From: an uncultured Nitrososphaerota archaeon
GTDB taxonomy: Archaea; Thermoproteota; Nitrososphaeria; Nitrososphaerales; Gagatemarchaeaceae
Assembly: GCA_963718895.1 (NCBI GenBank)
Contig: CAVRAG010000008.1
Coordinates: 416,001 to 480,000 of the forward strand
Direction: 5' to 3'
DNA length: 64,000 nt
Part shown: piece after piece, positions 16,684 to 37,198 of the stretch
How positions within the stretch are numbered: the first letter of the stretch is position 1
Layout: every line of letters starts with the position of its first letter
Program-made: the position numbers and the translations under genes
The notes under the pieces: generated by a model
Database searches by the model: none
Told to the model about the DNA's origin: nothing
The model's input: only the letters and a program-made list of their open reading frames with translations

Positions 16684-17566
16684 ATGAAACCTCTCGGAAG
16701 AGTGACAGCAGTACTACTGCTCGTCGTCCTCGTCATGGGGGGCGTGGTAGGAATTATCTATTTTGACGACCAGCAAGTGATAAGCTCACAGTCGTCGACC
16801 ATAAGCAAACAATCGGTGACGATACAGGGGCAGGTCGCGTCGATCCAGAGCCAGTCGTCCGACGCTGCAGAAGGACGAGTCCTCTCTGACCACCCTCGAA
16901 GCGAACATCACGGCGACGGAGACGGCTCTCGCCCAGGACCAGGCAAGTCTCGCCCAGGCGCAGGCTGAAGCCGCGAACCTGACGACGACCATAGCATCGT
17001 ACAAGACCGAGATAGCCACCATCACGGCGGAGTACTCGCAGGCCAACGGGACCATCGCCTCGCTCAAGGCCGAGGTCGCCCCGCTGCAGGCCCAGGTCGC
17101 TTCCTTGCAGACTCAGCTGAATGGGTTCCAGGTACAGATTACGGGGCTGCAGACGCAGATTGCCGGATACCAGACGCAGATCGCCACTCTCCAGGCTCAG
17201 GTCAAGTCGCTCACCGCCATCGTGGACCTGAGCCAGAGCACGGTACTGCTCAGCCAGCAGTTCGTGGGAGTGCAGTCGATCGGCGACCAGGTCGCCGACA
17301 ATTTCAACGCCACCTACTCCGGGTACGTCGCGGTGTCCATGTCCCAAATCAGCGACATCAGTAACGTCCAGGTCGGCGTGTTGATCTTCTTCGCCTCCTC
17401 GGTCAACTCTGGCCAGTACACTTCCGAACCCATCGGCCCCTACTCATTCACCTCGATTCCTGGCCTGATAGTCTTCCCGGTGACACCCGGGTCGGTCACC
17501 GTCTACCTTTCCAACACGGACAGCACACCTGAGAACGCAACCCTCTCGATCACCTACTACTACTGA
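16684..17566 (+). CDS. Membrane-anchored coiled-coil protein (frameshift ~16870)
   Basis: N-terminal TM, heptad Q/A/L-rich stalk and a C-terminal beta domain. Confidence 0.7.
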
Positions 17567-17600
17567 CCCCGGGTCAATCGGTCTCCCCGCAGGGCACAAT

Positions 17601-17610
17601 GCATAAATAA
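17601..17610 (+). promoter_or_regulatory. TATA box of the aromatic superoperon
   Basis: GCATAAATAA about 30 nt upstream of the TTG at 17640. Confidence 0.55.
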
Positions 17611-17639
17611 CGTCGGCCGGCTCGGAAAGCCAGAGAGCG

Positions 17640-17702
17640 TTGAAGGAGAGAAGCAGAGGCGGTTCACTTTATCGTTCTGTTCTTTTCGGCTTTAGCTTCT
17701 AG
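17640..17702 (+). CDS. Putative Phe-rich leader peptide MKERSRGGSLYRSVLFGFSF
   Basis: 20-codon TTG-start ORF near the predicted TSS, ending F-G-F-S-F-stop. Its 3' end is complementary to the lysC Shine-Dalgarno. Confidence 0.55.
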   Translation: MKERSRGGSLYRSVLFGFSF

Positions 17703-17744
17703 ACCCGATTCAAGCTCCCACTGGACATTGGAGGCTCATGCTCA

Positions 17745-18969
17745 ATGACAAATAGGAACGACAGAGAAATCACGGTCGTGAAGTTCGGAGGGTCGGTCCT
17801 AGAGAACGAGAGATCAATGGAGCAGGCCGCGCAGCTCGTCATCGACACCGCGGAGAAGGGCTTCGGCGTGGTGGTCGTGGTCTCGGCGATGAAGGGCGTC
17901 ACAGACCAGCTCATCGCGCTCGCCAAGAAGGTCAGATCCAAAGATGGAAGCCGCGCTGATGGATGAGCTCCTAGCCTCCGGCGAGAAGACCAGCGCCCGG
18001 CTGATGGCCGGGGCGCTCGCGGGCCACGGCGTAAGGTCGGTGGTAGTCGACCCCGAGACATCCTACTGGCCGATCGTGACCGACTCGAGGCACCTGGACG
18101 CAAACCCCATCATGGAGCTCAGCAGAGAAAAGGCGCAGGAAGTGATCCTCCCCCTCCTGCGGGAGGGCAAGGTGCCCGTTGTCTGCGGCTTCCTAGGGAA
18201 GACGGTGGAAGGCAAGACGACCACGATGGGCAGGGGAGGTTCGGACACGACGGCGGTCATCCTCGGAAGCTGCCTTGATGCCAAGGAGGTCGTCCTGATA
18301 AAGGACGTCGAGGGGGTCTACTCGTCCGACCCCGACAGGGTCAGGAATCCTCACTTCATCGAGTCGCTCAACGGAGAGGAGGCCGAGATGCTCGCGGCCG
18401 GAGGCGCGAAGTTCCTCCACGTGAAAGCGCTCCGCTACCAGGCCAGCGGGCTGAGGCTGAGGGTGACGAGCCTGGACAAGCTGAACGCGGGGACCGTGAT
18501 AAAGGGCGACCTCGCCCCGATAAGCCTCGAGGTCTTCCCGCAGGGAGTGTCGATGATAACGGTGGTGGGTCTCGATGCAAAGAAGCTCGAGTCCGTATCA
18601 CAGCTGACCCGCGCGGTGAGGGAGGACGGGGGGTCCCTGCTCGCGCTCTCTCTCGAGGCCACGTCTGCGATATTCTATGTGGCGGGAGGGAAGAACGTCC
18701 TGGATCAGGTCCACCAGGTGCTCGTCAGCGAGAACATCGGCAAGGCCGTCTCCTCCTTTGACGGCCTCTCGATGATGACGGTGAAGGGGAGCTCGCTCGA
18801 GACGGAGACGGGGATCGTGCAGAGGATCACCCAGCCTCTGGCACGGTCCAACATCAACCTCTTCGGGATAGTGACGATCCGGTCCTCAATCAGGGTCTTC
18901 GTCTCCTCCGACCAGGCCGAGAGGGCCCTCGAGCTCATCCGGGAGGCCATGATGGTGAAGAAACCATGA
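17745..18969 (+). CDS. lysC: Aspartokinase (frameshift ~17940)
   Basis: VVKFGGS, VVVSAM, GRGGSDTTA and DVEGVYSSDP motifs with C-terminal ACT domains. Confidence 0.92.
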
Positions 18970-20027
18970 AGAAGATCAGAGCGGCTCTGCTCGGCGCGAC
19001 CGGCGCCGTGGGACAGAGGTACATCAACATGCTGGAGAGTCACCCGTACATCAACCTCGAGGTCCTGATGGGTGGCGAGTCTGCCGGGAAGAAGTACGGC
19101 GAGGCAGTCCACTGGCTCTTCCCGGACGCGATACCCGAAAGGTTCGCCCGAGCGGAGGTCCGCAGGGCGCGCCCAGAGTCCGCCGAAGGGTGCGACGTCG
19201 TCTTCTCAGCCCTCCCCTCCGAGGTCGCAGGTGAGATAGAGCAGGCCTTCGCCCGTTCCGGGCTCACCATGGTCAGCGAAGCGAGCTCGCACAGGATGGA
19301 CCCCGACGTGCCGCTCATGATCCCCGAGGTCAACCCCGGCCATCTGGCGCTGCTCGGGGTACAGCGTAAGAAGAGAGGGTGGAAGGGGGCGATAGCGACG
19401 ACCCCCAACTGCACCGTGACGGGGCTCGCGATAGTGATGAAACCACTCCTAGACGAGTTCGCGGCGCAGAAGGCGATCGTGACTACGATGCAGGCCCTCT
19501 CTGGGGCAGGCTACCCGGGGGTTCCGTCGCTCGCGATAACGGAGAACGTGATACCCTATATCAAGAACGAGGAGGAGAAGGTCGCGAGGGAGGCGAAGAA
19601 GATACTCGGGACCTTCAAGGACGGCGTCGTCCACGAGAACGGGATACCGATGGGGATATCCTGCAACAGGGTCCAGGTCATCGACGGGCACACGGAGACG
19701 CTCTACGCGGAGTTCCCGGGGCGGGTCGACCCGCAGGAAGCCGCCAGGGTCCTCGCGGGCTTCAGGGGGAAGCCGCAGGAGCTCAGGCTGCACACCGCGC
19801 CCGAACGGCCGATCATAGTGAGGTCCGAGAACGACAGACCCCAGCCGCGGCTCGACAGGATGGCCGGGAGCGTTCCTGGCATGAGCGTGACGGTGGGCAG
19901 ACTGCGGAACGGGATAGACGGGAAGTCCCTCCAGCTGACCCTGCTCTCGCACAACACGATCAGGGGCGCTGCGGGGACCGCCATCCTCACGGCGGAGCTC
20001 ATGGCCAGGGAAGGATACATCGGGTGA
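18966..20027 (+). CDS. asd: Aspartate-semialdehyde dehydrogenase (archaeal type)
   Basis: LGATGAVGQ, TPNC, QALSGAG and HNTIRGAAG motifs. Confidence 0.96.
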   Translation: MKKIRAALLGATGAVGQRYINMLESHPYINLEVLMGGESAGKKYGEAVHWLFPDAIPERFARAEVRRARPESAEGCDVVFSALPSEVAGEIEQAFARSGLTMVSEASSHRMDPDVPLMIPEVNPGHLALLGVQRKKRGWKGAIATTPNCTVTGLAIVMKPLLDEFAAQKAIVTTMQALSGAGYPGVPSLAITENVIPYIKNEEEKVAREAKKILGTFKDGVVHENGIPMGISCNRVQVIDGHTETLYAEFPGRVDPQEAARVLAGFRGKPQELRLHTAPERPIIVRSENDRPQPRLDRMAGSVPGMSVTVGRLRNGIDGKSLQLTLLSHNTIRGAAGTAILTAELMAREGYIG

Positions 20028-20033
20028 TCATGG

Positions 20034-20829
20034 TTGACAACCGGTAAAGACGTCCGTGTCTCAAGGATAACACGAAACGGGAGGATGCTCTGCATCCCGA
20101 TGGACCACTCGCTGACCGTCGGTCCGATAGCGGGGCTCGAAGACACGGAGGAGGCGATAAATCAGATCGCGAGGGGAGGTGCCACCGCGTTCCTTGTCCA
20201 AAAGGGGATCATAAAGTCCCTCAGCAAGCCGGTCGATATCGGGATGATCATCCAGCTCTCGGCGAGCACGAGCATCGGGATGTCTCCCAACAGGAAGGTC
20301 CTTATCGCGAGCGTCCTCGAGAGCATCAGGCTGGGCGTCGACGCGATCTCGATACACGTCAACATAGGAGGGAAGGAGGAACCCGAGATGCTCCAGCAAC
20401 TTGGGATGGTCTCGGACGAGTGCGACTCGTACTCCGTCCCCTTCATCGCCATGATGTATCCACGAGGCGAGAACATCAAGGACCCGTCGGACCCCGAGGT
20501 GGTGGCGCACGTCGCCAGGATAGGTGCCGAGGCGGGCGCGGACATCGTCAAGACCGTGTACACCGGGATCGCCCGAGACGTTCAGGGAGGTCGTCAGGAA
20601 GTGTCCCGTCCCGGTCGTGCTCGCCGGAGGCTCAAAGGCCGAGTCCGACGAGGCGCTTCTGAGGATGACCCAGGAGGTCATGAAGGCTGGGGCGATGGGC
20701 GTGACCTACGGGAGGAACGTCTTCCAGCACAGGAGCCCGATGCTGATCACGAGGGCGCTCAAGAAGGTGGTGATAGACAGGGCCAGCGTCGAGGAGGCTA
20801 TGGAGGTACTAAAGCCTGCCCCGCCCTGA
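20034..20829 (+). CDS. aroA': 2-amino-3,7-dideoxy-D-threo-hept-6-ulosonate (ADH) synthase, class IA aldolase fold (frameshift ~20570)
   Basis: IPMDH, AMMYPRG, GADIVKT (Schiff-base Lys) and GRNVFQH motifs; adjacent to DHQ synthase II. Confidence 0.88.
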
Positions 20830-21841
20830 CAAGGACATAGTCCTCGACATTACCGGGGCCGCTAGCCCCGAAGGGTTGCTGAGGGAAGCGAAAGGCGTCG
20901 GGATCAACAAGGCCATCTCGAGGAAGTCCACCTCGGAGGTCCCCGAGGTCGAAGGAGTCCAGGTCGTCAGGGTCTCCGACGCGGCGGGCGACTCCGGCAC
21001 CGCCGCGTGGGTCGAGGTGGCGGGTGCGGGAGACATGGAGAGGGCCGTCGCAGCCGCCGGGCAGGGCCACGCCTTTGTCGTCGTCCAGCCGGAGAACTGG
21101 AAGATCATCCCTCTGGAGAACCTCATCGCGGACTTCCACCGCCAGGGGAAGAAGGTTTACGCTTACATGAAGACCAAGGCCGAGATGGAGATGGCCTTCT
21201 CGATTCTGGAGAAGGGCGTCGACGGGATCGTGGTCCCCGCCGAGTCGCTCCAGGCCGCCGCCGAGATAGTCTCGACCCTCGGGAGAGAAGACCGGTACTC
21301 GCTCCCGGTAGCCAAGGTTACGAAGTTAGTCGACGTCGGCAACGGCGAGCGCGCCTGCATAGACACGGCCTCCCAGCTCACGATAGGCGAGGGGCTCCTC
21401 GTCGGGAGCCGGGCGAGCTTCTTCTTCCTTGTCCACAGCGAGACCATCCCCTCGGAGTACATTCCGACGAGGGAGTTCAGGGTGAACGCGGGAGCGATCC
21501 ACAGCTATGTGCTCGGCGAGGGGGACAAGACGAGATACCTCTCAGAGCTCAGGTCCTCGGACAAGGTCAGGACGGTCATGAGCGACGGCAGGTCCAGGCA
21601 GGTCGTCGTCGGCAGGGTCAAGATCGAGAGGCGGCCGCTGATGATGATCGAGGCCTCAGTTGACGGCGAGCGGGGGACCGTGATGCTTCAGAAGGCCGAG
21701 ACGATCAGGCTGATCCGCCCCGATGGTTCGCCCGTCTCAGTGACGGACATCAAGGTCGGGGACGAAGTACTTGTGCACCTTACGCAGAGCAAGGCGAGGC
21801 ACTTCGGCGGAGAGGTCGACGAGTTCATTCTTGAGAGGTAG
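20816..21841 (+). CDS. aroB': 3-dehydroquinate synthase II
   Basis: WKIIPLENLIA, RACIDT, FRVNAG and QKAETIRL motifs; probable CTG start after a GGAGGT SD. Confidence 0.93.
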   Translation: MPRPDKDIVLDITGAASPEGLLREAKGVGINKAISRKSTSEVPEVEGVQVVRVSDAAGDSGTAAWVEVAGAGDMERAVAAAGQGHAFVVVQPENWKIIPLENLIADFHRQGKKVYAYMKTKAEMEMAFSILEKGVDGIVVPAESLQAAAEIVSTLGREDRYSLPVAKVTKLVDVGNGERACIDTASQLTIGEGLLVGSRASFFFLVHSETIPSEYIPTREFRVNAGAIHSYVLGEGDKTRYLSELRSSDKVRTVMSDGRSRQVVVGRVKIERRPLMMIEASVDGERGTVMLQKAETIRLIRPDGSPVSVTDIKVGDEVLVHLTQSKARHFGGEVDEFILER

Positions 21842-22540
21842 CGAGAGGGCGGCCCGAAGTCTGGGCCGCGTCTGCACGACCATATCATCAGGGACGCCCT
21901 TGGGGATGGTGAAGAAGGCGGCGGCCGCGTTCTCCTTCGGTAGCGACCTCGTCGAGTTCAGGTTCGACCTGCTTCGGGAGCCCGAAGCCGAAGTCCCAGA
22001 GCCTCTGGCACGGCTCGCTCGCAGATCTGTCTTCACCGTAAGGCGGAAGGACGAGGGAGGCGGGTTCGAGGGGACCGAGACAGAGAGGCCGCGCTGCTCT
22101 CGAGGCTCAGCCGGATCCGGCCCCTCTTCATGGATATCGAGCTGAGAACGGCCCAGGAGAACCCGGAATGGTTCCAGGCACTGCCGAGAAGACAGCGGAC
22201 GATCGTCTCGTGGCACTCCCTCGACGGCACCCCCGCGCTCTCGGTCTTGCGGCGGGCGCGGGAGAGGCGCTGGGTCGCTGGGGGATGTGGCGAAGATCGT
22301 GACCATCGGCGAGGAGCTTCGAGGACAGCCTCAGGGTGCTGAGGCTCTACGAGAGCGACCCGCTCGACCTGGTGGCCTTCTGCACGGGCGGCGGCCGGAG
22401 CAGCCTCGCGTCTGGTCAGCATGCAGCTTGGGAGCCCGATAGTCTACGCGTCCCTTCCAGGCGAGCCGGTCGCTCCAGGGCAGATCTCGGTCGAGACCAT
22501 CGCAGGGCTGAAGAGGATTTGGGGGAGAGCCGCCTGGTAG
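21831..22540 (+). CDS. aroD: Type I 3-dehydroquinate dehydratase (multiple frameshifts)
   Basis: DLVEFRFD, FTVRRKDEGG, DIEL, IVSWH and APGQISV motifs spread across frames. Confidence 0.85.
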
Positions 22541-23363
22541 ACTCGTACCGGCTGCTCGGGGAGGACGTTTCTCGATCGCTCTCCCCCGCCATGATGAACG
22601 CGGCCTTCGAAGCGACCGGAGTCGACGCGAGGTACGAGGCGATCAGCGTCGTAAGGGAGGAATTCAGGAGCAGGTTCCTGGCCCTCAAGGGGGAGGTCCA
22701 GGGGATGAACCTCACCATACCGTTCAAGTCCGAGGTCCTTCCTCTTCTTGATGGGCTCGACGAGGTCTCCGCGAGGATAGGCGCTGCCAACGTGGTAGCA
22801 AAGTCGGGGTCTCGTTGCCTGGGTTACAACACCGACGTGAACGGCATCACCGCTCCTCTGAAGGACCATGGTGCGGAGCGGGTCGACCGCGCGCTTCTGC
22901 ATGGGCGCCGGCGGGGCGGCGAGGGCCTTCTGCGAGGCCATGAACCAGATCGGGTGCTCAGAGGTCACCGTCGTGGTCCGCGACAGGGCGAAGGGCGACG
23001 GACTTCGTCTCCGAGATGAAGAGGACATTCCCCAGGATCAGGTTCAGCGCCGTCGGGATAGACGGGATCGGAGGTGCTGAAGCAGACCTCGTATTCAACG
23101 CGACCCCCACAGGCTCGTGGGTCCCGCTCCCGGAGGCGCTCAAGCGGGTTATCTATGGGCACGTGACCGTGTTTGACGCCGTGTACAGACCGATGAAGAC
23201 AGAACTCCTGAGGGCCGCAGAGGAGGTGGGCTCTCCGATAATATACGGATACGAGATGCTCCTGAACCAGGGCACCAAGGCGTTTGAGCTCTGGACGGGA
23301 AAGAAGGCTCCCAGGCAAGTGATGGAGACGGCCCTGCGCTCCTCCTTGGAGGGAGAGCGATGA
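22519..23363 (+). CDS. aroE: Shikimate dehydrogenase (frameshifts)
   Basis: SLSPAMMN, GMNLTIPFK, YNTD, GAGGAAR, NATP and EMLLNQG motifs. Confidence 0.9.
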
Positions 23364-24245
23364 AGGGGAGGGGTTCCACTTTCGGCGCGATCAGCATCGT
23401 GAACGCCATAGCCGGGGGCAAGGGAGTTACGGCGAGCACCAAGCTCGGCACAGAATCCGTAGTGGAGCTGGAGAACAAGCCGGGAGGCTGGTCCGTATTC
23501 GTCAACGAGAAGGAGCGTGGAGTCGAAGCTGGCCTCAGAGACCATAAGATTGGCCCTGAAGATGGCCGGCAGGGAGCCTGCGGACTTCTCCGGGACCGTC
23601 CGCACCGTGACCGCTCTGCCGACAGGGGTGGGGCTCAAGACGTCCTCGTCGTCCTCCTCGGCCATTGCCCTGGCCGTCTTTGCAGCGCTCGGCCAGAGGG
23701 CATTCGACCCCCACAAGATCATGATCTGCAGCATCGACGCGTCCCTGGCGAGCGGAGCCTCCTTTACGGGGGCAATGGACGATTGCGCATCCTGCCTGCT
23801 CGGGGGGATCAACATGGCGGACAATCTGGGGCGGAAGATCGAACGCTCGAAGCTCTTCGACAGACCGCTCAAGATAGCGATCAAGGTCCCGAAGACCCCG
23901 AGCAAGAGGGGCGCGGTCGAAGTCGCTGAGGTAAGGAAGCTGGGGAAGGTCGCGGAGGTCCTGTACAGGATGTGCACGGAGGGGGACCTCTGGCGGGCCA
24001 TGACGCTGAACGGGGTCCTCTACTCTGGAATCTACGGATATGACTCGAGGCCGGCGCTCCTCGCGGTGGAGCACGGCGCCCTGGGCGCGTCCCTGTCTGG
24101 GACGGGGCCGGCCACGGCGGCTGTGTTCGATCCAAAGTCGAGCTCCGAGATGGGTCACCTCGTCGAGGCCTGGGCCTCGGACGGCAGTCAGGTGCTGGAG
24201 ACGGAGACCAACAACGAGCACGGGAGGATAGAGGCCATTGAGTAG
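23360..24245 (+). CDS. aroK: Archaeal (GHMP-type) shikimate kinase (frameshift ~23515)
   Basis: GAISIVNAI, GVGLKTSSS, TGAMDD and LSGTGPA motifs. Confidence 0.92.
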
Positions 24246-25524
24246 CACGACGGTGACCGTCGGCGGACGGCTCGAGGGGAGAGTCAGGGTCCCTCCGAGC
24301 AAGAGCTACACCCATCGGGCGGTCCTGATGGCGAGCCTTGCCGAAGGCGGGTCGACCATCTCAAACGCCCTGTTCTCCCGCGATACCAGGGCCACGATGG
24401 CCGCCTGCAGGTCGATGGGCGCCCGCCTTGAGGAGTCGGGTTTGACAATCAGGGTGGACGGCACGGCGCCGAGAACCCCCGAAGACGTCGTGAACGTCGA
24501 GAACTCAGGGACGACTCTCAGGTTCATGACGTCCGCGTTCGCAGCCGCGCCGGAGGGATATGTGGTCCTCACGGGCGACTCGAGCATCAGGAGAAGGCCG
24601 ATGCAGCCCCTACTGGACACGCTAAAGGAGCTCGGAGTCGAGGCGTGGTCGACCCGAGGGAACGGGTGCGCGCCGGTCGTCGTTAGAGCGGGGGGCATCG
24701 CGGGAGGGAGCGCCACCATCAGGGGGGACGTTTCGTCCCAGTTCGTGTCCTCTCTCCTCATCTCCTCACCCATGGCGGAGAGGGAGACGTCGCTTGCGGT
24801 CGCCGACGCAGTCTCAAGGCCGTACATCGAGGCGACCCTCAACCTGTCCCGCCGATTCGGAATCAGGATCGAAAGGGAGGGCTTCACCCGGTTCCAGGTG
24901 GCGCCAGGTCAGAGGTACGAGCACTGCGACTTTACGGTCCCCGCGGACTTCAGTTCGGCCTCTTTCATCGTCGCGGCGGTCGGCCTCGCGGGGGGAAAGG
25001 TCGTCCTCGAGGACCTGAACCCGGCCCTCCCCCAGGGCGACTCTGCCATCCTTGGTATCGCGTCGGCGATGGGCGTCCGGGTGAACCAGGGCGACGACTC
25101 GGTCACCGTCGAGTCGGACGGCGCGGGGCTGAACGGTGGGACCTTCAACCTGGGAGACACACCCGACCTCCTCCCTGTCGTCGCCGCCCTCGCGCTCAGG
25201 AGCGAGTCCCCGGTGGAGGTCGTCGGGACGGCGCACGCCAGGTTCAAGGAGACCGACAGGATAGCGATACTCTCGAGCGAACTCTCGAAGCTGGGCGTCA
25301 AGATAGAGGAGAGGCAGGACGGCATGAAGATATCACCGTCCGGAGAGCTGAGGTCTGCTCTCCTGGACGCGCACGACGACCACCGGATGTTCATGGCGTT
25401 CTCTCTGGCGTCGCTGCTCGTCCCGGGAGGGGTCCCGGTCGTCGGGGCGGAGAGCCTGGACGTCTCCTACCCAGGGTTCCTCGAAGACATGAAGAGGCTA
25501 GGTGCGAGGGTGGAGAGCCCATGA
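24238..25524 (+). CDS. aroA: EPSP synthase
   Basis: PPSKSYTHR, NSGTTLRF, SSQFVS, KETDR and DHRM motifs. Confidence 0.96.
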   Translation: MSSTTVTVGGRLEGRVRVPPSKSYTHRAVLMASLAEGGSTISNALFSRDTRATMAACRSMGARLEESGLTIRVDGTAPRTPEDVVNVENSGTTLRFMTSAFAAAPEGYVVLTGDSSIRRRPMQPLLDTLKELGVEAWSTRGNGCAPVVVRAGGIAGGSATIRGDVSSQFVSSLLISSPMAERETSLAVADAVSRPYIEATLNLSRRFGIRIEREGFTRFQVAPGQRYEHCDFTVPADFSSASFIVAAVGLAGGKVVLEDLNPALPQGDSAILGIASAMGVRVNQGDDSVTVESDGAGLNGGTFNLGDTPDLLPVVAALALRSESPVEVVGTAHARFKETDRIAILSSELSKLGVKIEERQDGMKISPSGELRSALLDAHDDHRMFMAFSLASLLVPGGVPVVGAESLDVSYPGFLEDMKRLGARVESP

Positions 25525-26627
25525 CGGGCAACATAGTGGGCGAGCGGTTCGTCCTCGCAAGCTTCGGGGAGAGCCACGGGAAGGTCGTAGGCGCCGTCAT
25601 CGACGGCTGCCCGGCGGGCCTGAGGATCTCGGAGGAGGACATCCAGAGGGACCTCGACCTGAGGAAGCCGGGTCAGTCCATCGTGACGACCCAGAGGAAG
25701 GAGGGCGACGTCGTGGAGATAATGAGCGGGACGTTCAGGGGATACACCACCGGCGCCCCGATCATGATGCTGATACGCAACCAGGACCAGGACTCCCGCG
25801 CCTACGAGGCGCTGGTCAACACGCCTCGACCGGGGCACGCAGACGCGACCTCCAAGGCAAAGTACGGAGCCTTCAACGACTACAGGGGAGGCGGGAGGTT
25901 CTCGGGGAGGATAACGGCGACCTTCGTGATGGGCGGAGCCGTGGCCAAGAAGCTCCTCCGAGAGACCCTCGGCATAGAGATCATCGCATACACCTCCGAA
26001 CTGGGCGGCCTGAGGGCCGAGGGGTTCACCCTGGAAGAGGCCAGGAAGAACAGGTACTCGAACGAGGTGAGGTCTCCCGACCTGACGGCGGCCGAGGAGA
26101 TGAGGAAGAGGGTGATCGAGATGAGAGGCAAGGGCGACAGTCTGGGCGGAGTGGTCGAGTGCGTAGCGCTGAACGTGCCCCAGGGGCTCGGCGAGCCGGT
26201 CTTCGGTTCGCTCGACTCCGACCTGGCGAGGATAGCGCTGGCCATCCCGGCCGTGAAGGGCGTAGAGTTCGGGTCTGGGTTCGCGTCCACCCGCTTGACC
26301 GGGACCCAGAACAACGACCTCTTCAAGATGCGCGACGGCAGGCTCTTCTCGGAGACCAACAACGCAGGGGGGATACTAGGTGGCATCTCCAGCGGCATGC
26401 CCATCGTCTACAGGATAGCCTTCAAGCCGGCAGCCTCTGTGGCAGCGAAGCAGCGGACCTTCGACACGGCGAAGAACGAGGAGGTGGACCTCGTGGTCCC
26501 GGGAAGGCACGACCCCACCGTCGTACCGAGGGCCGTCCCCGTGGTCGAGAGCGTCACGGCGCTCGTCCTTGCGGACCATGCGATCAGGGGCGGATTTATT
26601 GCCCCGGTCCTCAAGCTGGTGGATTGA
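25521..26627 (+). CDS. aroC: Chorismate synthase
   Basis: FGESHG, RPGHAD, GGGRFSGR, NNAGGILGG and GRHDP motifs. Confidence 0.97.
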   Translation: MTGNIVGERFVLASFGESHGKVVGAVIDGCPAGLRISEEDIQRDLDLRKPGQSIVTTQRKEGDVVEIMSGTFRGYTTGAPIMMLIRNQDQDSRAYEALVNTPRPGHADATSKAKYGAFNDYRGGGRFSGRITATFVMGGAVAKKLLRETLGIEIIAYTSELGGLRAEGFTLEEARKNRYSNEVRSPDLTAAEEMRKRVIEMRGKGDSLGGVVECVALNVPQGLGEPVFGSLDSDLARIALAIPAVKGVEFGSGFASTRLTGTQNNDLFKMRDGRLFSETNNAGGILGGISSGMPIVYRIAFKPAASVAAKQRTFDTAKNEEVDLVVPGRHDPTVVPRAVPVVESVTALVLADHAIRGGFIAPVLKLVD

Positions 26628-28022
26628 TGAGCTCCGAGAAGGAACTCAGGCGACCTGAGGGAGCAGGTCGCGGACAAGACGAGGCAGATAATCGAACTTA
26701 TCGCCGCGAGGAACGCCCTGGCTCAGAAGATCGGGGCTATCAAGTCGAGGGAGTCCCTGCCGGTCGAGGACGGCAGGGTCGAGGACTCGCTCGTCAGGCT
26801 CGTGATGCAGGAGTGTGAGGAGAAGGGGGTCGACGTCCAGGCGGGGCTCAAGGTCCTCAACACCATCCTCGCCGAGGGCAAGCGCGTACAGGGATTCCAG
26901 ACGAGGCAGTCTCTGATCACTCCCACGATGATGGGCGCCAAGGCCCGCGAACTGGAGGCGAGCGGGAGGCAGCTCCTCAGGCTCGACGTCGGGGAGCCGG
27001 ACTTCCACCCACCGAAGGCGGTGCTCGATGCGACCTCGCAGGCCCTCTACGCCTTCAAGACCCACTACACGGGGACGCGCGGCATCCCCGAGCTCGTCAC
27101 GGCCGTCAGGCGCTATCTCGAGAGGAAGCACCACTACTCTGCCAAGGACTCGGAGCTCATGGTAGCCCCGGGGGGCAGGTTCTGCGTCTACATGGCGCTG
27201 GCGACCGCCGTCAGGGAGGGCGAGAGCGCCTTGGTCATAGAGCCCAACTGGCCCGCCTACAAAGAGGTGCTCCAGTTCATCGGGGCCAGGGCCGTCACCG
27301 TCCGCACGACCATGGAGGAGAGATGGGAACCCTCCGTGGAGGCCATACACGACGCCATCAGGCCAAACACCAAGGCGATCCTCCTCAGCTACCCGGCGAA
27401 TCCAACCGGGAAGATTATCTCGCCGGCCAAGTTCAAGGAAATCGTCGGACTCGCGAACGACCATAGGCTGACCATAGTCAGCGACGAGATCTACACCGAC
27501 TACGCGTACAGCGAGTGCCCGAGCATCATGGGGTCGGGTGCGCAGAGGTTCATCCTCACGTCCTCCTTCTCGAAGACCTGGGCGATGACGGGGTTCAGAG
27601 TGGGATACGCCGTCTCCTCCGAGGAGACGATATCCAGGATGATGAAGATACAGGCCCTGATCGTCACGTCAGTCCCGGAGTTCATCCAGTACGGCGCCAT
27701 AAAGGCCCTCGAGAGCGACGCCGAGGTCGCCCAGAACTCGGCGGCGATGAAGGAGCGCATACAGGCGGCGAGCAAGGAGCTGGACGCCATAGACGCGCTT
27801 CAATACGTCAGGCCTGACGGGGCGATGTACGTCTTCCCTCAGGCCAGGAAGTTGGACTTCGACTCCTCCGACTTCACCATGAAGCTGCTCGAGCAGAAGG
27901 GGGTGACGATCTCTCCGGGTACTGGGTTCGGCGACTATCCTCGATGCTTCAGGATCTCCCTCGGCGGTTCAATGGAGACGATCGTAGGCGGGATCAGGAA
28001 GATAGGGGAATTGATCGGTTGA
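26627..28022 (+). CDS. Chorismate mutase (AroQ) fused to class I/II aminotransferase (frameshift ~26650)
   Basis: N-terminal LREQV..RNALAQKIGAIK...ED.RVE (CM_2 pattern), then GEPDF, NPTG, SDEIY and SFSKTWAMTGFRVG (PLP Lys). Confidence 0.88.
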
Positions 28023-28867
28023 AGGTCGCGGTCATCGGGTCCTCCGGCGGGATGGGCAGCTTCTTCGCAAGATACTTCCTCTCAAGGGGAATGGAGGTCG
28101 TCGGCTCGGACTCAAGGAAGAAGACGCTCAAGAATCCACATTTCTCGTTCGTTAGGTCCAACGCGGAGGCCGTCAAGGGAGCGGAGATCGTGGTCGTTGC
28201 GACCCCCATAGACACGACAGTCGAGACGGTCAGGGCCTTCGCCAGAAACCTGGCTCCCGGCGCCTGCGTGATCGAGATGACCTCCGTAAAGGGAAAGATG
28301 CTCGGGGCGCTAAGGGAACGGGTCGCCGGGCGGAGGGCCAGGCTCCTCTCCCTTCACCCGCTCTTCGGCCCCTCCCTCAGGTCGCAGAACGAGATGAAGC
28401 TCTGCGTGATAGAGACTGATTCGGGCTCGCTCGCCGTGGCGCGCTCGCTCTTTCCGGAGGCGACGCTCATCCCGATGAAGGCGCGGGAGCACGACAGGAT
28501 GATGGCCATGATTCTCTCGCTCACCCACCTGGTGAACATCGCATACGCGGGGACGGTCAGCAGGTACCTCGAGCCCGGGGAGTTCAGGAGGATTCAGACG
28601 CCCACCTCGGCGGTCCAGCTCACCCTCGCCGAAGGTGTCCTCTCCCAGAACCCATCGCTCTACTCTTACATCCAGCTCGAGAACGAGTTCTCATCGGAGT
28701 TCGCCGACGCCCTCATCAAGGAACTCGGGTCGCTCAAGCGGCTGATCGAGAGGAGAGACAGAAAGGGCTTCGAGAAGCGCTTCAGCGGACTCTCCAAGAA
28801 GTATGCCGGCGACTCCAAGTCTGCTCTCGACCTCGTCTACCAGGCTTTCGAGAGGTCGTCCCGCTAG
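28019..28867 (+). CDS. tyrA: Prephenate/arogenate dehydrogenase
   Basis: IGSSGGMG, TSVK, HPLFGP and EHDRMMA..LTH motifs. Confidence 0.92.
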   Translation: MKVAVIGSSGGMGSFFARYFLSRGMEVVGSDSRKKTLKNPHFSFVRSNAEAVKGAEIVVVATPIDTTVETVRAFARNLAPGACVIEMTSVKGKMLGALRERVAGRRARLLSLHPLFGPSLRSQNEMKLCVIETDSGSLAVARSLFPEATLIPMKAREHDRMMAMILSLTHLVNIAYAGTVSRYLEPGEFRRIQTPTSAVQLTLAEGVLSQNPSLYSYIQLENEFSSEFADALIKELGSLKRLIERRDRKGFEKRFSGLSKKYAGDSKSALDLVYQAFERSSR

Positions 28868-34958: not shown

Positions 34959-35545
34959 TGCTGAACCCCGCTCCTTAGGAAGTTCGCTACTATCTTCTTG
35001 CCTTCCGGGGTCATTATGGACTCCGGGTGGTACTGGACGCCCTCGATAGGGTACTCGACGTGGCGGACGCCCATTATCTCGGCGTCTTCCATGGAGAGCG
35101 CGGTCACCTTCAGGCAGTCCGGGATGTCATCCTTCTCGATCGCCAGGGAGTGGTAGCGGGTGGCCTGGAACGGGTTCCCGACGCCTTCGAGGACCCCCTT
35201 GCCGTCGTGGACGATCATGCTCGTCTTGCCGTGCATCAGCCGGGACGCGCGCACGACCTTCCCTCCGAAGACGGCGCCGATCCCCTGGTGGCCCAGGCAG
35301 ACGCCCAGCGTCGGAATCTCCCTGCTCATCGTCTTGAGGACGGCCGTGCAGACCCCGAAGTAGTGCTCGTCCTCCGGGTTCCCGGGGCCCGGAGAGATGA
35401 TTATCCTGTCGGGTTCCAGACCCTGAGCCTGCTTGAGGGTGAGCTTGTCGTTCCTGAAGACCTGGGGGTGGGCTCCGAGCTCGCCCACATACTGTGCCAG
35501 GTTGTAGACGAACGAGTCGTAGTTGTCGATGATGAGGACCTTCAT
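34955..35545 (-). CDS. trpG: Anthranilate synthase component II
   Basis: IDNYDSFVYNL, GVCLGHQ and QYHPES motifs. Confidence 0.96.
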   Translation of the reverse strand: MKVLIIDNYDSFVYNLAQYVGELGAHPQVFRNDKLTLKQAQGLEPDRIIISPGPGNPEDEHYFGVCTAVLKTMSREIPTLGVCLGHQGIGAVFGGKVVRASRLMHGKTSMIVHDGKGVLEGVGNPFQATRYHSLAIEKDDIPDCLKVTALSMEDAEIMGVRHVEYPIEGVQYHPESIMTPEGKKIVANFLRSGVQH

Positions 35546-36940
35546 CTCTTGCCACCCGATGCCTCGACGGCCCGGAAGAGCCCCGCCGCCTTGTTCTCGG
35601 TCTCCTCCCACTCCTTCGAAGGGACAGAGTCGGCGACCACGCCCCCACCCGCCTGGATGCTGCAGCGTTTCCCGTTCGCGAAGAGCGTGCGTATGGTGAT
35701 GGCGAAGTCGGCGTTCCCGTTGAAGGAGAAGTACCCTATCGCCCCGCCGTAGGGGCCCCTCCGCGTGGGCTCCAGCTCCTCGATTATCTCCATGGCTCTC
35801 GGCTTGGGAGCGCCGGAGAGCGTCCCTGCGGGGAAGAGGGCGCGTATCCCGTCGAAAGAGTCGAACTCGTCCCTGAGGTCGCCCACCACCCTCGAGACGA
35901 TGTGCTGGACGTGGCTGTACTGCTGGATGGTGAGGAACTCGGGGACCTTGACGCTCCCATACTTCGCCACCCGGCCGACGTCGTTCCTCCCGAGGTCGAC
36001 GAGCATGACGTGCTCTGCCCTCTCCTTGGGGTCGGCCAGCAGCTCCTTGGTCAGCCGGTCGTTCTCCTTCTGGTCAGGGACCCGGGGCGCCGTCCCGGCG
36101 ATGGGAAATGTCTCGATCCGCCTGTCCTCCACCCTCAGCAGCATCTCTGGGCTGGAGCCGACTATGCGCCGGTCCCCGAACTTCAGGAAGTACATGTAGG
36201 GGGAGGGGTTGATTCGGCTGAGCTCCGAGTAGAACCTCGCAAGGTCGCCGGTGGCCTCGAAGTCCTGCCGCTTCGATGGGACGACCTGGAAGATGTCGCC
36301 GGCGGCGATGTACTCCTTCGCCCTCTCGACCATCTTCTCGTACCGCCCTTGGTCGATGTTCGGCTTCCTCGGCCCGTGGTCGAGAGAGCCCATCTCCGCC
36401 CTCCGCCTCAGCAGCCGATCCACCAGCCCCGACCGGTCCTCGCCGAGGGAGCAGTAGCCGACTTCTCCGTTCGCGTGGTCGAAGGCTATTCCGTCGGTGT
36501 AGATGCCGAACTCCATGTCAGGGGCTGCGAGGTCGTCCTTCGCGGTGCTCGGGAGCCTCTCCCAGTAGCGGACCGAGTCGTAGGAGATGTAGCCCACAGC
36601 GCCGCCTATGAACCGGTATGGACCCCTTCCTCTCGTCGAGCCCACCAGGGCGCGCAGGTTCTCGAGCGGGTCGGCGGTCCGCACACGCTCGCGTCTTCCG
36701 CTGACCCTGTCGGTAACCTCGAGTTCGCCGTTCTTGACACGGAAGAGGGCCGCCGGCTCGAATCCGATGAAGGAGTACTCGGCGAGCCTGCTCGCCCCCT
36801 TGGCAGACTCGAGGAGGAACGCCTCTTCGTATTCTTGCTGGACCTTCAGGAAGAGTTGCTGGGGTGTGTCGGAGACCTTGAGCTTACTCGTCTTGAGACG
36901 AAGAAGTCTGGACCGCTAGCGCAGCGCCAAAGATAGCCAC
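35542..36940 (-). CDS. trpE: Anthranilate synthase component I (start region ambiguous)
   Basis: AFLLES, GDIFQVV, NPSPY, EHVMLVDLGRND and GTLSGAPK motifs; in-frame TAG at 36918-36916 near the start. Confidence 0.93.
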
Positions 36941-37198
36941 CCAAGTTGTTCGCCGGATGCCGTCTGGATAGCCGCTTAATATGTATGTTGTCTGGCGTAC
37001 AATAACGCACTGATATGCGCGGTCTCCTCGCGCATATTCTGGCAATTCTTACTATTCATAGGGTGAACGGTGAATGTTGACTCGGGCCTCTGTCTCGTTA
37101 TTGGGTGATTTGAAGCGGTGTCCCGCGTTGGGTGATAGTTCAAGCTGACCGTGAACTCGGTGGCGCCCTTTTTCCACTTTGGCACGGGCCACACCAAT

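Follow-up and report, generated by a model that had tools for sequence, protein, structure and literature searches.

Can an archaeon read its supply of aromatic amino acids through a ribosome translating a short leader? Leader-peptide attenuation is a textbook bacterial mechanism. We considered this question for a locus in a 64,000-nt stretch of DNA (the window) from an uncultured Nitrososphaerota archaeon (assembly GCA_963718895.1, contig CAVRAG010000008.1, positions 416,001 to 480,000). Here the stretch that separates a TATA-like box from the Shine-Dalgarno (SD) sequence and start codon of lysC contains a short upstream open reading frame (uORF) whose end is rich in aromatic codons; lysC is the first gene of an operon for aromatic amino-acid biosynthesis. 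On balance, we think that this element is a translated regulatory leader peptide for the operon; it looks like the ribosome-sensed leader-peptide control known in bacteria and not yet shown in archaea. The initial annotation of the window had proposed, more narrowly, that stalling on Phe codons masks an anti-SD sequence and so turns the operon on. Leader-peptide control proved right in kind, the uORF being conserved, probably translated and provided with cognate codons, whereas the particular helix and the sign of control were not supported as proposed.

For amino-acid pathways in archaea, the regulators known so far are a small number of DNA-binding proteins. In the parts available to us, PMC6737238 describes TrpY of M. 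thermautotrophicus and Tar (TK0271) of T. kodakarensis, DNA-binding regulators of aromatic pathways that act at the promoter, and many archaea with aro or trp operons that lack both, for which a third regulator or mechanism is suggested. TrpY and Tar thus regulate the same pathways as the element described here, but they do so as promoter-binding proteins, in contrast to a reading frame within the transcript. No archaeal amino-acid leader-peptide attenuator was found in the full-text literature searched, subscription journals and supplements lying outside its scope, and two archaeal ribosome-profiling (Ribo-seq) papers, in their accessible sections, merely mention possible uORFs.

Results

A short aromatic-ended reading frame lies between promoter and lysC

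The elements of the leader and operon in the window are listed in Table 1. The uORF is found exactly where the initial annotation had placed it, with three Phe codons among its last five (17685, 17691 and 17697) and one Tyr codon (17670). The TATA-like box reported at 17601 is also present, with its core displaced slightly downstream of that position. Transcription is predicted to start from the usual archaeal spacing between TATA box and start site; the distance from TATA box to uORF start is fixed among the leaders compared, giving predicted 5′ untranslated regions (UTRs) of 2-13 nt, mostly 7-10 nt.

The SD lies 10 nt upstream of the lysC ATG. The archaeal 16S rRNA of the same genome (1447 bits) has the 3′ end ...GGATCACCTCCT. 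Since GGAGG, and the GGTGA of some relatives, are complementary to this end, we regard them as genuine SD sequences.

Table 1. Coordinates of the lysC leader elements and operon within the window.
Feature	Position	Strand	Details
TATA-like promoter box GCATAAATA	17601-17609	+	Core ATAAATA at 17603-17609
Very short 5′ UTR, AGAGAGC, with the predicted transcription start	17633-17639	+	Conserved GAGA/CGAGA
Leader uORF MKERSRGGSLYRSVLFGFSF	17640-17702	+	TTG start, 20 codons, TAG stop at 17700-17702
Conserved core GAGGCGGTTCACTTTAT	17656-17672	+	Translates as R-G-G-S-L-Y
Aromatic codon cluster TTC GGC TTT AGC TTC (F-G-F-S-F)	17685-17699	+	
Anti-SD 1, AGCTTCTA	17694-17701	+	Overlaps last two codons and stop
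Anti-SD 2, AGCTCCCA	17713-17720	+	In the spacer
lysC SD region TGGAGGCT	17729-17736	+	GGAGG at 17730-17734
lysC, aspartate kinase with ACT domains	17745-18969	+	First gene of operon; ATG at 17745; Pfam
Rest of operon	18966-28867	+	Pfam matches

The uORF is conserved in the genus and across its family

An orthologue of lysC was found in 21 of the 22 other genomes of the genus. With the window's own genome this gave 22 loci, 20 of which had upstream DNA; L013 and L022, at contig end, were dropped. Sampling across the order covered 251 genomes, 56 of them with this type of lysC, and added 36 more upstream pieces; L141 was too short and was dropped. All 20 genus leaders carry the GCATAAATA box, which is invariant in the alignment, followed ~24 nt on by a conserved GAGA or CGAGA and then by an in-frame uORF. 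Outside the genus, an aromatic-ended uORF was present in 10 of 12 loci from five other genera of the family, so that in total 30 of 32 family loci, in five of the six genera sampled, have such a frame 5′ of lysC. The uORF and aromatic codons first noticed in a single window are thus conserved in its relatives, and the first refuting condition named in the initial annotation, a lack of such conservation, did not materialize.

The peptides encoded by these frames are related but distinct in their ends. Clade 1 (10 loci, the window included) uses a TTG start and reads M-x3-4-R-G-G-S-(V/L)-Y-x3-4-F-G-F-x-x, with the ends FGFSF, FGFKF, FGFRL, CGFWF, FGFYYF and FGFKR. In clade 2 (10 loci) the start codon is ATG and the peptide is M-x3-R-G-G-S-(V/L)-Y-x2-L-x-Y-x-K-P-I-(F/Y)-G-F-R-Y. 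In the seven loci of genus g20 the uORF ends in YGYSW, YGYYGYSW or FGFFGYSW, and the three genera represented by a single locus end in ...RGGSVYRQPLYGYSW (g2), ...RGDLVYRRFGFRYYF (g24) and ...LYLSYSYWVSYYY (g22).

Frame 0 is free of internal stops in all 30 of these leaders. The other two frames are interrupted in 25 and 13 of them, and differences in uORF length come as whole codons. The start codon is TTG in 19, ATG in 10 and GTG in one; the stop is TAG in 23, TAA in five and TGA in two. Phe, Tyr or Trp fills 100 of the 180 positions that make up the last six residues, against 54 of 450 (12%) in the rest of the peptide, and the same tail bases read in the other frames yield 22 and 24 aromatic residues per 180 (12-13%). 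The final residue is Y in 11 leaders, F in nine, W in eight, and L and R in one each. The three aromatic residues swap between lineages (FGFSF, FGFRY, FGFYYF, YGYSW, FGFFGYSW, VSYYY), and this interchangeable use contradicts the Phe-specific sensing initially proposed. Because the genomes are related, we count the independent evidence as about six genus-level lineages with different tails rather than as 30 cases.

Clade-1 uORFs stop 39-42 nt ahead of the lysC start. This distance is 48 nt in every one of the 10 clade-2 loci and 40-42 nt in g20, and the single loci have 36 nt (g2), 51 nt (g24) and 28 nt (g22). The uORF, its frame, its aromatic end and its fixed position with respect to both promoter and lysC can all be read directly from these leaders, and from them we infer that the uORF is translated.

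The uORF end and a spacer could offer alternative partners around the SD

In the window AGCTTCTA pairs with TGGAGGCT at 8 of 8 positions, two of them G-U pairs, which is the helix between last codons and SD that the initial annotation had described. The RNAduplex energy of this pairing is -10.1 kcal/mol in the window and in L002, -7.7 in L003 and -9.3 in L005, where, as read from the sequences, both strands of the helix have changed and the pairing is kept. Strong pairing is limited to L001, L002, L003 and L005; the helix is weak in the other six of the 10 clade-1 leaders (-2.6 to -5.6) and in all seven g20 leaders (-0.6 to -3.6). A more general pattern comprises three parts, which we number 1 for the uORF end, 2 for a CT-rich spacer with an anti-SD and 3 for the SD. 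As read from sequences and duplexes, a CTCC-like element lies 1-16 nt past the uORF stop in every lineage of the family. The second anti-SD that had been noticed at 17713 is confirmed as AGCTCCCA in this spacer, and the window's spacer:SD duplex has an energy of -9.4 kcal/mol, which shuffled spacers equal. In 23 of 29 leaders, the window not among them, 5% or fewer of 200 spacer shuffles match the native strength in both the 1:2 and the 2:3 pairing.

Alternative helices can be read directly in two sister groups. In clade 2, GGTTTTCGC, which spans the G-F-R codons, is paired with GCGAAAATC beside the SD in all cells (100%); of the changes seen in this helix, one is two-sided and three are one-sided. 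For CGCTCTAG and CTGGAGCG the paired fraction of cells is 92%, compared with 35-47% in slid controls. In g20, AGTTGG (Ser-Trp codons), CCAACT (spacer) and TTGGAG (SD flank) change in concert to AGCTGG, CCAGCT and CTGGAG, with the sequences split 3 versus 4 for 1:2 and 2 versus 5 for 2:3; these duplexes were computed for each sequence, the MAFFT alignment of the spacer being shifted by one column in two of them. The two alternative helices have similar energies (-7 to -14 versus -10 to -16 kcal/mol). In both groups, mutually exclusive helices that involve the region of the control codons are clear in these predictions.

We therefore put forward a mechanism in conditional form. Transcription would start ~8 nt ahead of the uORF, and a ribosome would read 20-24 codons, with Phe, Tyr and Trp codons predominating over the final five or six. 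The time that this ribosome dwells at the 3′ end of the uORF would select among mutually exclusive helices formed by the uORF end, the CT-rich anti-SD spacer just past the stop and the lysC SD, and the choice of helix would set lysC translation and thereby expression of the operon. The signal would be the supply of aromatic aminoacyl-tRNA, and the output is probably access to the SD rather than Rho-type termination. Codon sensing remains our preferred reading, given the free exchange of F, Y and W and a tail specific to the products of the pathway.

A further pairing was seen nearer the 5′ end. Positions 17633-17639 of the window are complementary to 17714-17724 (CCAG.GAGC and GCTC...CTGG), and in sister clades a conserved 5′ CGAG or GCGAGA is, by eye, complementary to CTCG or TCTCGC in the spacer. 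The leader could thus close as a panhandle that includes the uORF start region, as suggested by the minimum-free-energy fold of the window and otherwise by inspection.

An older core extends across the order

The conserved core of the window (GAGGCGGTTCACTTTAT) is the sole exact copy in the 3.13-Mb genome, with three-mismatch matches at the level of controls. A looser pattern, GGCGAT-N3-5-(N)TTTA, occurs 5′ of lysC in 29 of 33 further loci (31 from other families and two from genus g23) and in none on the opposite strand, so that conservation reaches beyond the regulatory codons. Across the order the core reads M-(R/K)-G-(D/G)-x-(L/V)-Y, although the lysC proteins that follow are only 41-54% identical. 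At 17 loci an ATG, GTG or TTG stands one or two codons ahead of the Gly, and the resulting uORFs have 9-22 codons. Different lineages use AGA, CGA, CGG or AGG for the core Arg, and we take this turnover as a coding signature. RNAalifold found no consensus pair in 36 order-wide leaders around the core, which argues that the core is not a structured aptamer. As a search term, the degenerate 16-mer has a background of ~0.3-0.5 matches per genome and is therefore unusable alone for finding leaders.

Several other arrangements were seen outside the family. In family f11, loci L030, L144 and L145 have the core motif followed by a stop and then a separate, ATG-started uORF that ends ...FFFNFYY or ...FSFNFYY and lies ~70 to 13 nt before lysC; in L147 a single frame joins the core to a ...LFTYY end. 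In family f6 (G029 contig 2, 400719-403620; L025 and L172), lysC and trpE are divergent and share an intergenic region of <1 kb that contains the core motif.

Weighing leader-peptide control against other explanations

A number of results weigh against the reading of this element as a codon-sensing leader peptide, beginning with the window on its own. The 131-nt leader folds at -38 kcal/mol compared with -33.6 +/- 3.7 for shuffles (z = -1.17), and 24 of 200 shuffles fold equally well; the window's spacer pairings (1:2 and 2:3 together) are equalled by 30% of spacer shuffles (0.30). Three aromatic residues among the last five occur in 12 of 7006 small frames of 12-40 codons beside long frames of the same genome. 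The leader in the window alone is not beyond chance, and it rises above chance because of its position before an aromatic operon and its conservation. A de novo scan of the genome for further leaders with cognate codons gave output too noisy for use.

In principle, then, the frame could encode a small trans-acting protein or be a chance ORF in a conserved 5′ UTR. The lack of statistical distinction in a single window fits this idea, as does the finding, in the portions of the archaeal Ribo-seq literature seen, that small ORFs in 5′ UTRs are common and mostly have no assigned role. We regard it as very improbable: the frame always lies 28-51 nt ahead of the lysC of an aromatic operon, its frame and aromatic end stay while the linker evolves fast, and its 3′ end is built into helices with the lysC SD.

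The comparative evidence for a codon-sensing leader has its own contrary points. Both g23 loci have a uORF with the core and no aromatic tail, and in the same genome as the window the upstream regions of trpE and pheA contained no leader peptide. The covariation amounts to few events among related genomes, the concerted changes in g20 being probably one or two events, and a column-shuffle control for clade 2 was non-significant (72 of 500) because its sequences barely vary. The mean probability that the SD is unpaired is 0.23 in native leaders versus 0.27 in shuffled ones, with 0.38 in the window and ~0-0.07 in seven of the 10 clade-2 leaders; occlusion of the SD clearly beats spacer shuffles in clade 2 only.

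The direction of control is a further difficulty. We modelled ribosomes on each codon with a footprint, kept unpaired, that began 12 nt ahead of the first P-site base and reached 14-15 nt beyond it, and examined the SD core under these footprints in 23 of 29 leaders. No consistent opening of the lysC SD or ribosome-binding site resulted. In clade 2 the SD core stays shut while F, G, F and R occupy the A site and is partly open (0.05-0.59) only at the last codon or stop, where some g20 leaders also show partial opening; in the g20 leader L120, the SD closes (0.00-0.04) with the A site on Y-G-Y-S versus 0.43 when free. The clade-2 and g20 helices thus predict that a ribosome parked on the uORF end would let the anti-SD take the SD, the reverse of the initial proposal that stalling on the Phe codons masks the anti-SD and turns the operon on. 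If starvation is the signal, closure of the SD under a stalled ribosome has the wrong sign for a biosynthetic operon. The expected sign would return if the relevant stall were at the upstream conserved Tyr, or if the footprint reached the anti-SD; in g2 the anti-SD begins directly past the stop, where a footprint would reach it.

The remaining contrary points concern residues and bases that codon sensing leaves without a role. Besides its aromatic residues, the peptide conserves R-G-(G/D)-x-(V/L)-Y and the G between aromatics, and a pure sensor of codon starvation would not need such residues. These features suggest an alternative in which the nascent peptide, through the core M-R/K-G-D/G-x-L/V-Y and, in the family, the end [FY]-G-[FY]-x-[FYW], would bring its own ribosome to a halt, as bacterial and fungal arrest peptides do, if free aromatic amino acid or a pathway metabolite were abundant; the stalled ribosome would hold the uORF end, the anti-SD:SD helix would form and the operon would be shut. 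An excess of amino acid acting through the nascent peptide would give the correct sign for the clade-2 and g20 helices, in which a ribosome on part 1 permits anti-SD:SD pairing, and would explain the non-aromatic residues kept across the order despite the divergence of lysC. Several uORFs outside the family have only 9-11 codons, so that the whole peptide would still lie within the exit tunnel at termination. We nevertheless consider peptide arrest unlikely, if worth taking seriously, since by our count the spacing from the core Tyr to the stop varies between 8-9 residues in clade 1 and 14 in clade 2, the free swapping of F, Y and W at the end fits codon sensing, and the core nucleotides are kept even where the frame is closed or lacks a start. 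Equally tentative is a combined version, doubtful in our view, in which the order-wide mini-uORF M-(R/K)-G-(D/G)-x-(L/V)-Y encodes a nascent peptide that senses aromatic amino acids or a shikimate-pathway metabolite within the ribosome, and the F/Y/W tail of the family adds the reading of charged tRNA. If true, no metabolite sensor based on the ribosome would have been described before in Archaea.

The closed and startless frames bear on a third explanation. A stop directly follows R-G-D in four of nine f11 loci, with the core nucleotides kept, and four motif-bearing loci have no in-frame start; the GGC, GAT and CTT of the core keep their third bases even in AT-rich families. Together, these data imply constraint at the level of nucleotides as well. 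The core could accordingly be a nucleic-acid signal to which the open frame is secondary, either a DNA site (an operator shortly 3′ of the transcription start, or a weak second TATA box at CTTTAT) or a linear stretch of RNA that a protein recognizes. Such a signal would suit a motif that is strand-specific and tied to lysC, and known archaeal control of aromatic pathways works through the DNA-binding proteins TrpY and Tar (PMC6737238, parts seen). We judge this explanation improbable. The motif has no dyad symmetry on reading, is present in a single copy per genome in G000, shows no conserved fold or Rfam match and lies downstream of strong canonical TATA boxes at a fixed distance; moreover, a nucleic-acid signal leaves the turnover of starts and stops, the stop-free frame, the whole-codon indels and the aromatic tail unexplained. 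These are features that translation of a regulatory leader peptide would account for, and it is this reading that we carry forward.

The operon behind the leader and its surroundings

Pfam matches confirm the operon content given by the initial annotation (lysC-asd-aro-tyrA), with the gene order lysC-asd-aroA'-aroB'-aroD-aroE-aroK-aroA-aroC-aminotransferase-tyrA. After lysC come aspartate-semialdehyde dehydrogenase, a DeoC-type aldolase (AroA'), dehydroquinate (DHQ) synthase II and DHQ dehydratase I, and then shikimate dehydrogenase, a GHMP-type shikimate kinase, EPSP synthase, chorismate synthase, an aminotransferase and prephenate dehydrogenase. From this content the operon would produce chorismate and tyrosine starting from aspartate semialdehyde, by what we take to be the aspartate-semialdehyde/DKFP route to aromatic amino acids, and that route would explain why lysC and asd head the operon. 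In five of five genomes from five families, DHQ synthase II lies 1-3 kb 3′ of lysC on the same strand. A second aspartate kinase elsewhere in the genome is distant (31% identity), and a search of genome contigs with a lysC alignment gave, among the matches listed, only distant lysC genes (27-41% identity) and no close leaders. A conserved leader with cognate codons would also point to an aspartate kinase and an aspartate-semialdehyde dehydrogenase that serve aromatic synthesis as dedicated enzymes of this operon.

The lysC frame of the window is broken by one extra base near 17934, as judged against L002 and L003, whereas the frames of relatives are intact (406-431 aa). Other split genes are found at 20034-20840 versus 20524-20829, at 21771-23363, at 23360-24245 and at the N-terminus of trpE (~36880-36930, minus strand). 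In a genome assembly of 11 contigs and 80.5% completeness, such splits are more readily taken for assembly indel errors than for gene decay, with real pseudogenes also conceivable. A peat metatranscriptome run yielded a single 222-nt contig that matches 18586-18807, inside lysC, with 3 differences; the lysC region of a close relative is thus present in an RNA library, with no bearing on the leader.

Upstream of the leader, an ORF of 153 aa (17105-17566, plus strand) has no Pfam match, opens with Q/T-rich repeats of ~7 residues and stops ~35 nt ahead of the lysC TATA box. The trpE locus (35542-36930 and 37000-37050, minus strand) lies ~17 kb from lysC, on the same contigs in the window and in relatives, and the trpE start closely follows its promoter. 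Just 5′ of the trpE TATA box, most genus relatives have a TGTACA (or TGGACA) box with GCAC/GTAC-like bases 6-8 nt later (L157-L170 for trpE; ~36975-37015 on the minus strand of the window). A box of this type also stands before the lysC TATA box in g20 and g2 (L119-L127), and it resembles what we take to be the TRP boxes bound by TrpY.

Discussion

The leader of the lysC operon has several features of the bacterial leader-peptide attenuators of trp, phe, his, leu and ilv operons: a short leader ORF behind a promoter, cognate codons clustered near its end and, downstream, an operon for biosynthesis of the same amino acids. Exclusive helices at the 3′ end of the leader would be a further parallel; they are clear in the predictions for clade 2 and g20, whereas in the window the pairings do not stand out from shuffles. 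This arrangement of a short frame with clustered cognate codons stands before orthologous operons in the great majority of the family loci. The leader described here belongs to an archaeal host, mixes three aromatic residues, conserves non-cognate residues as well and has an SD rather than a terminator in its last helix. No terminator-like site (hairpin with a T run) was found in 17400-18000, so that no intrinsic terminator forms the final helix, and the longest T run of the leader is 4. To our knowledge, archaeal RNA polymerase does not use terminators of this kind. The leader does not resemble a riboswitch or other structured cis-RNA either, as the 36 aligned leaders had no consensus pair and an Rfam scan of 17000-18500 returned no relevant family, with only a chance match inside lysC at E values up to 10.

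Control at the level of translation has closer parallels. In the erm and cat/cml systems of translational attenuation, the position of a ribosome on a leader ORF gates a hairpin over the SD through the same three-part logic. The signal here is likely to be aromatic amino-acid supply instead of an antibiotic, and the clade-2 and g20 geometry predicts closure of the SD, not opening, with a ribosome on the last codons; in the folding model, a stalled leader ribosome does not consistently free the SD. Arrest peptides that sense amino acids, such as the tryptophanase leader of E. coli and the fungal arginine attenuator peptide, are alike in placing a conserved short peptide before a gene for metabolism of the same amino acid, with residues conserved beyond what codon sensing would need. 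The leader described here differs from them in the variable spacing of its parts and in the F/Y/W swapping of its end residues. Leaders that sequester an SD in response to amino acids have been predicted in Actinobacteria (PMC1262725, in the parts available), and they share the logic of ribosome position and SD hairpin as that source presents it.

The leader is a compact, testable element of ~110 nt for which nature supplies variants with F-only, Y/W and F/Y/W tails. If a uORF of cognate codons is indeed wired to the SD of the first gene of this operon, archaea would also use the translating ribosome as a sensor of amino acids.

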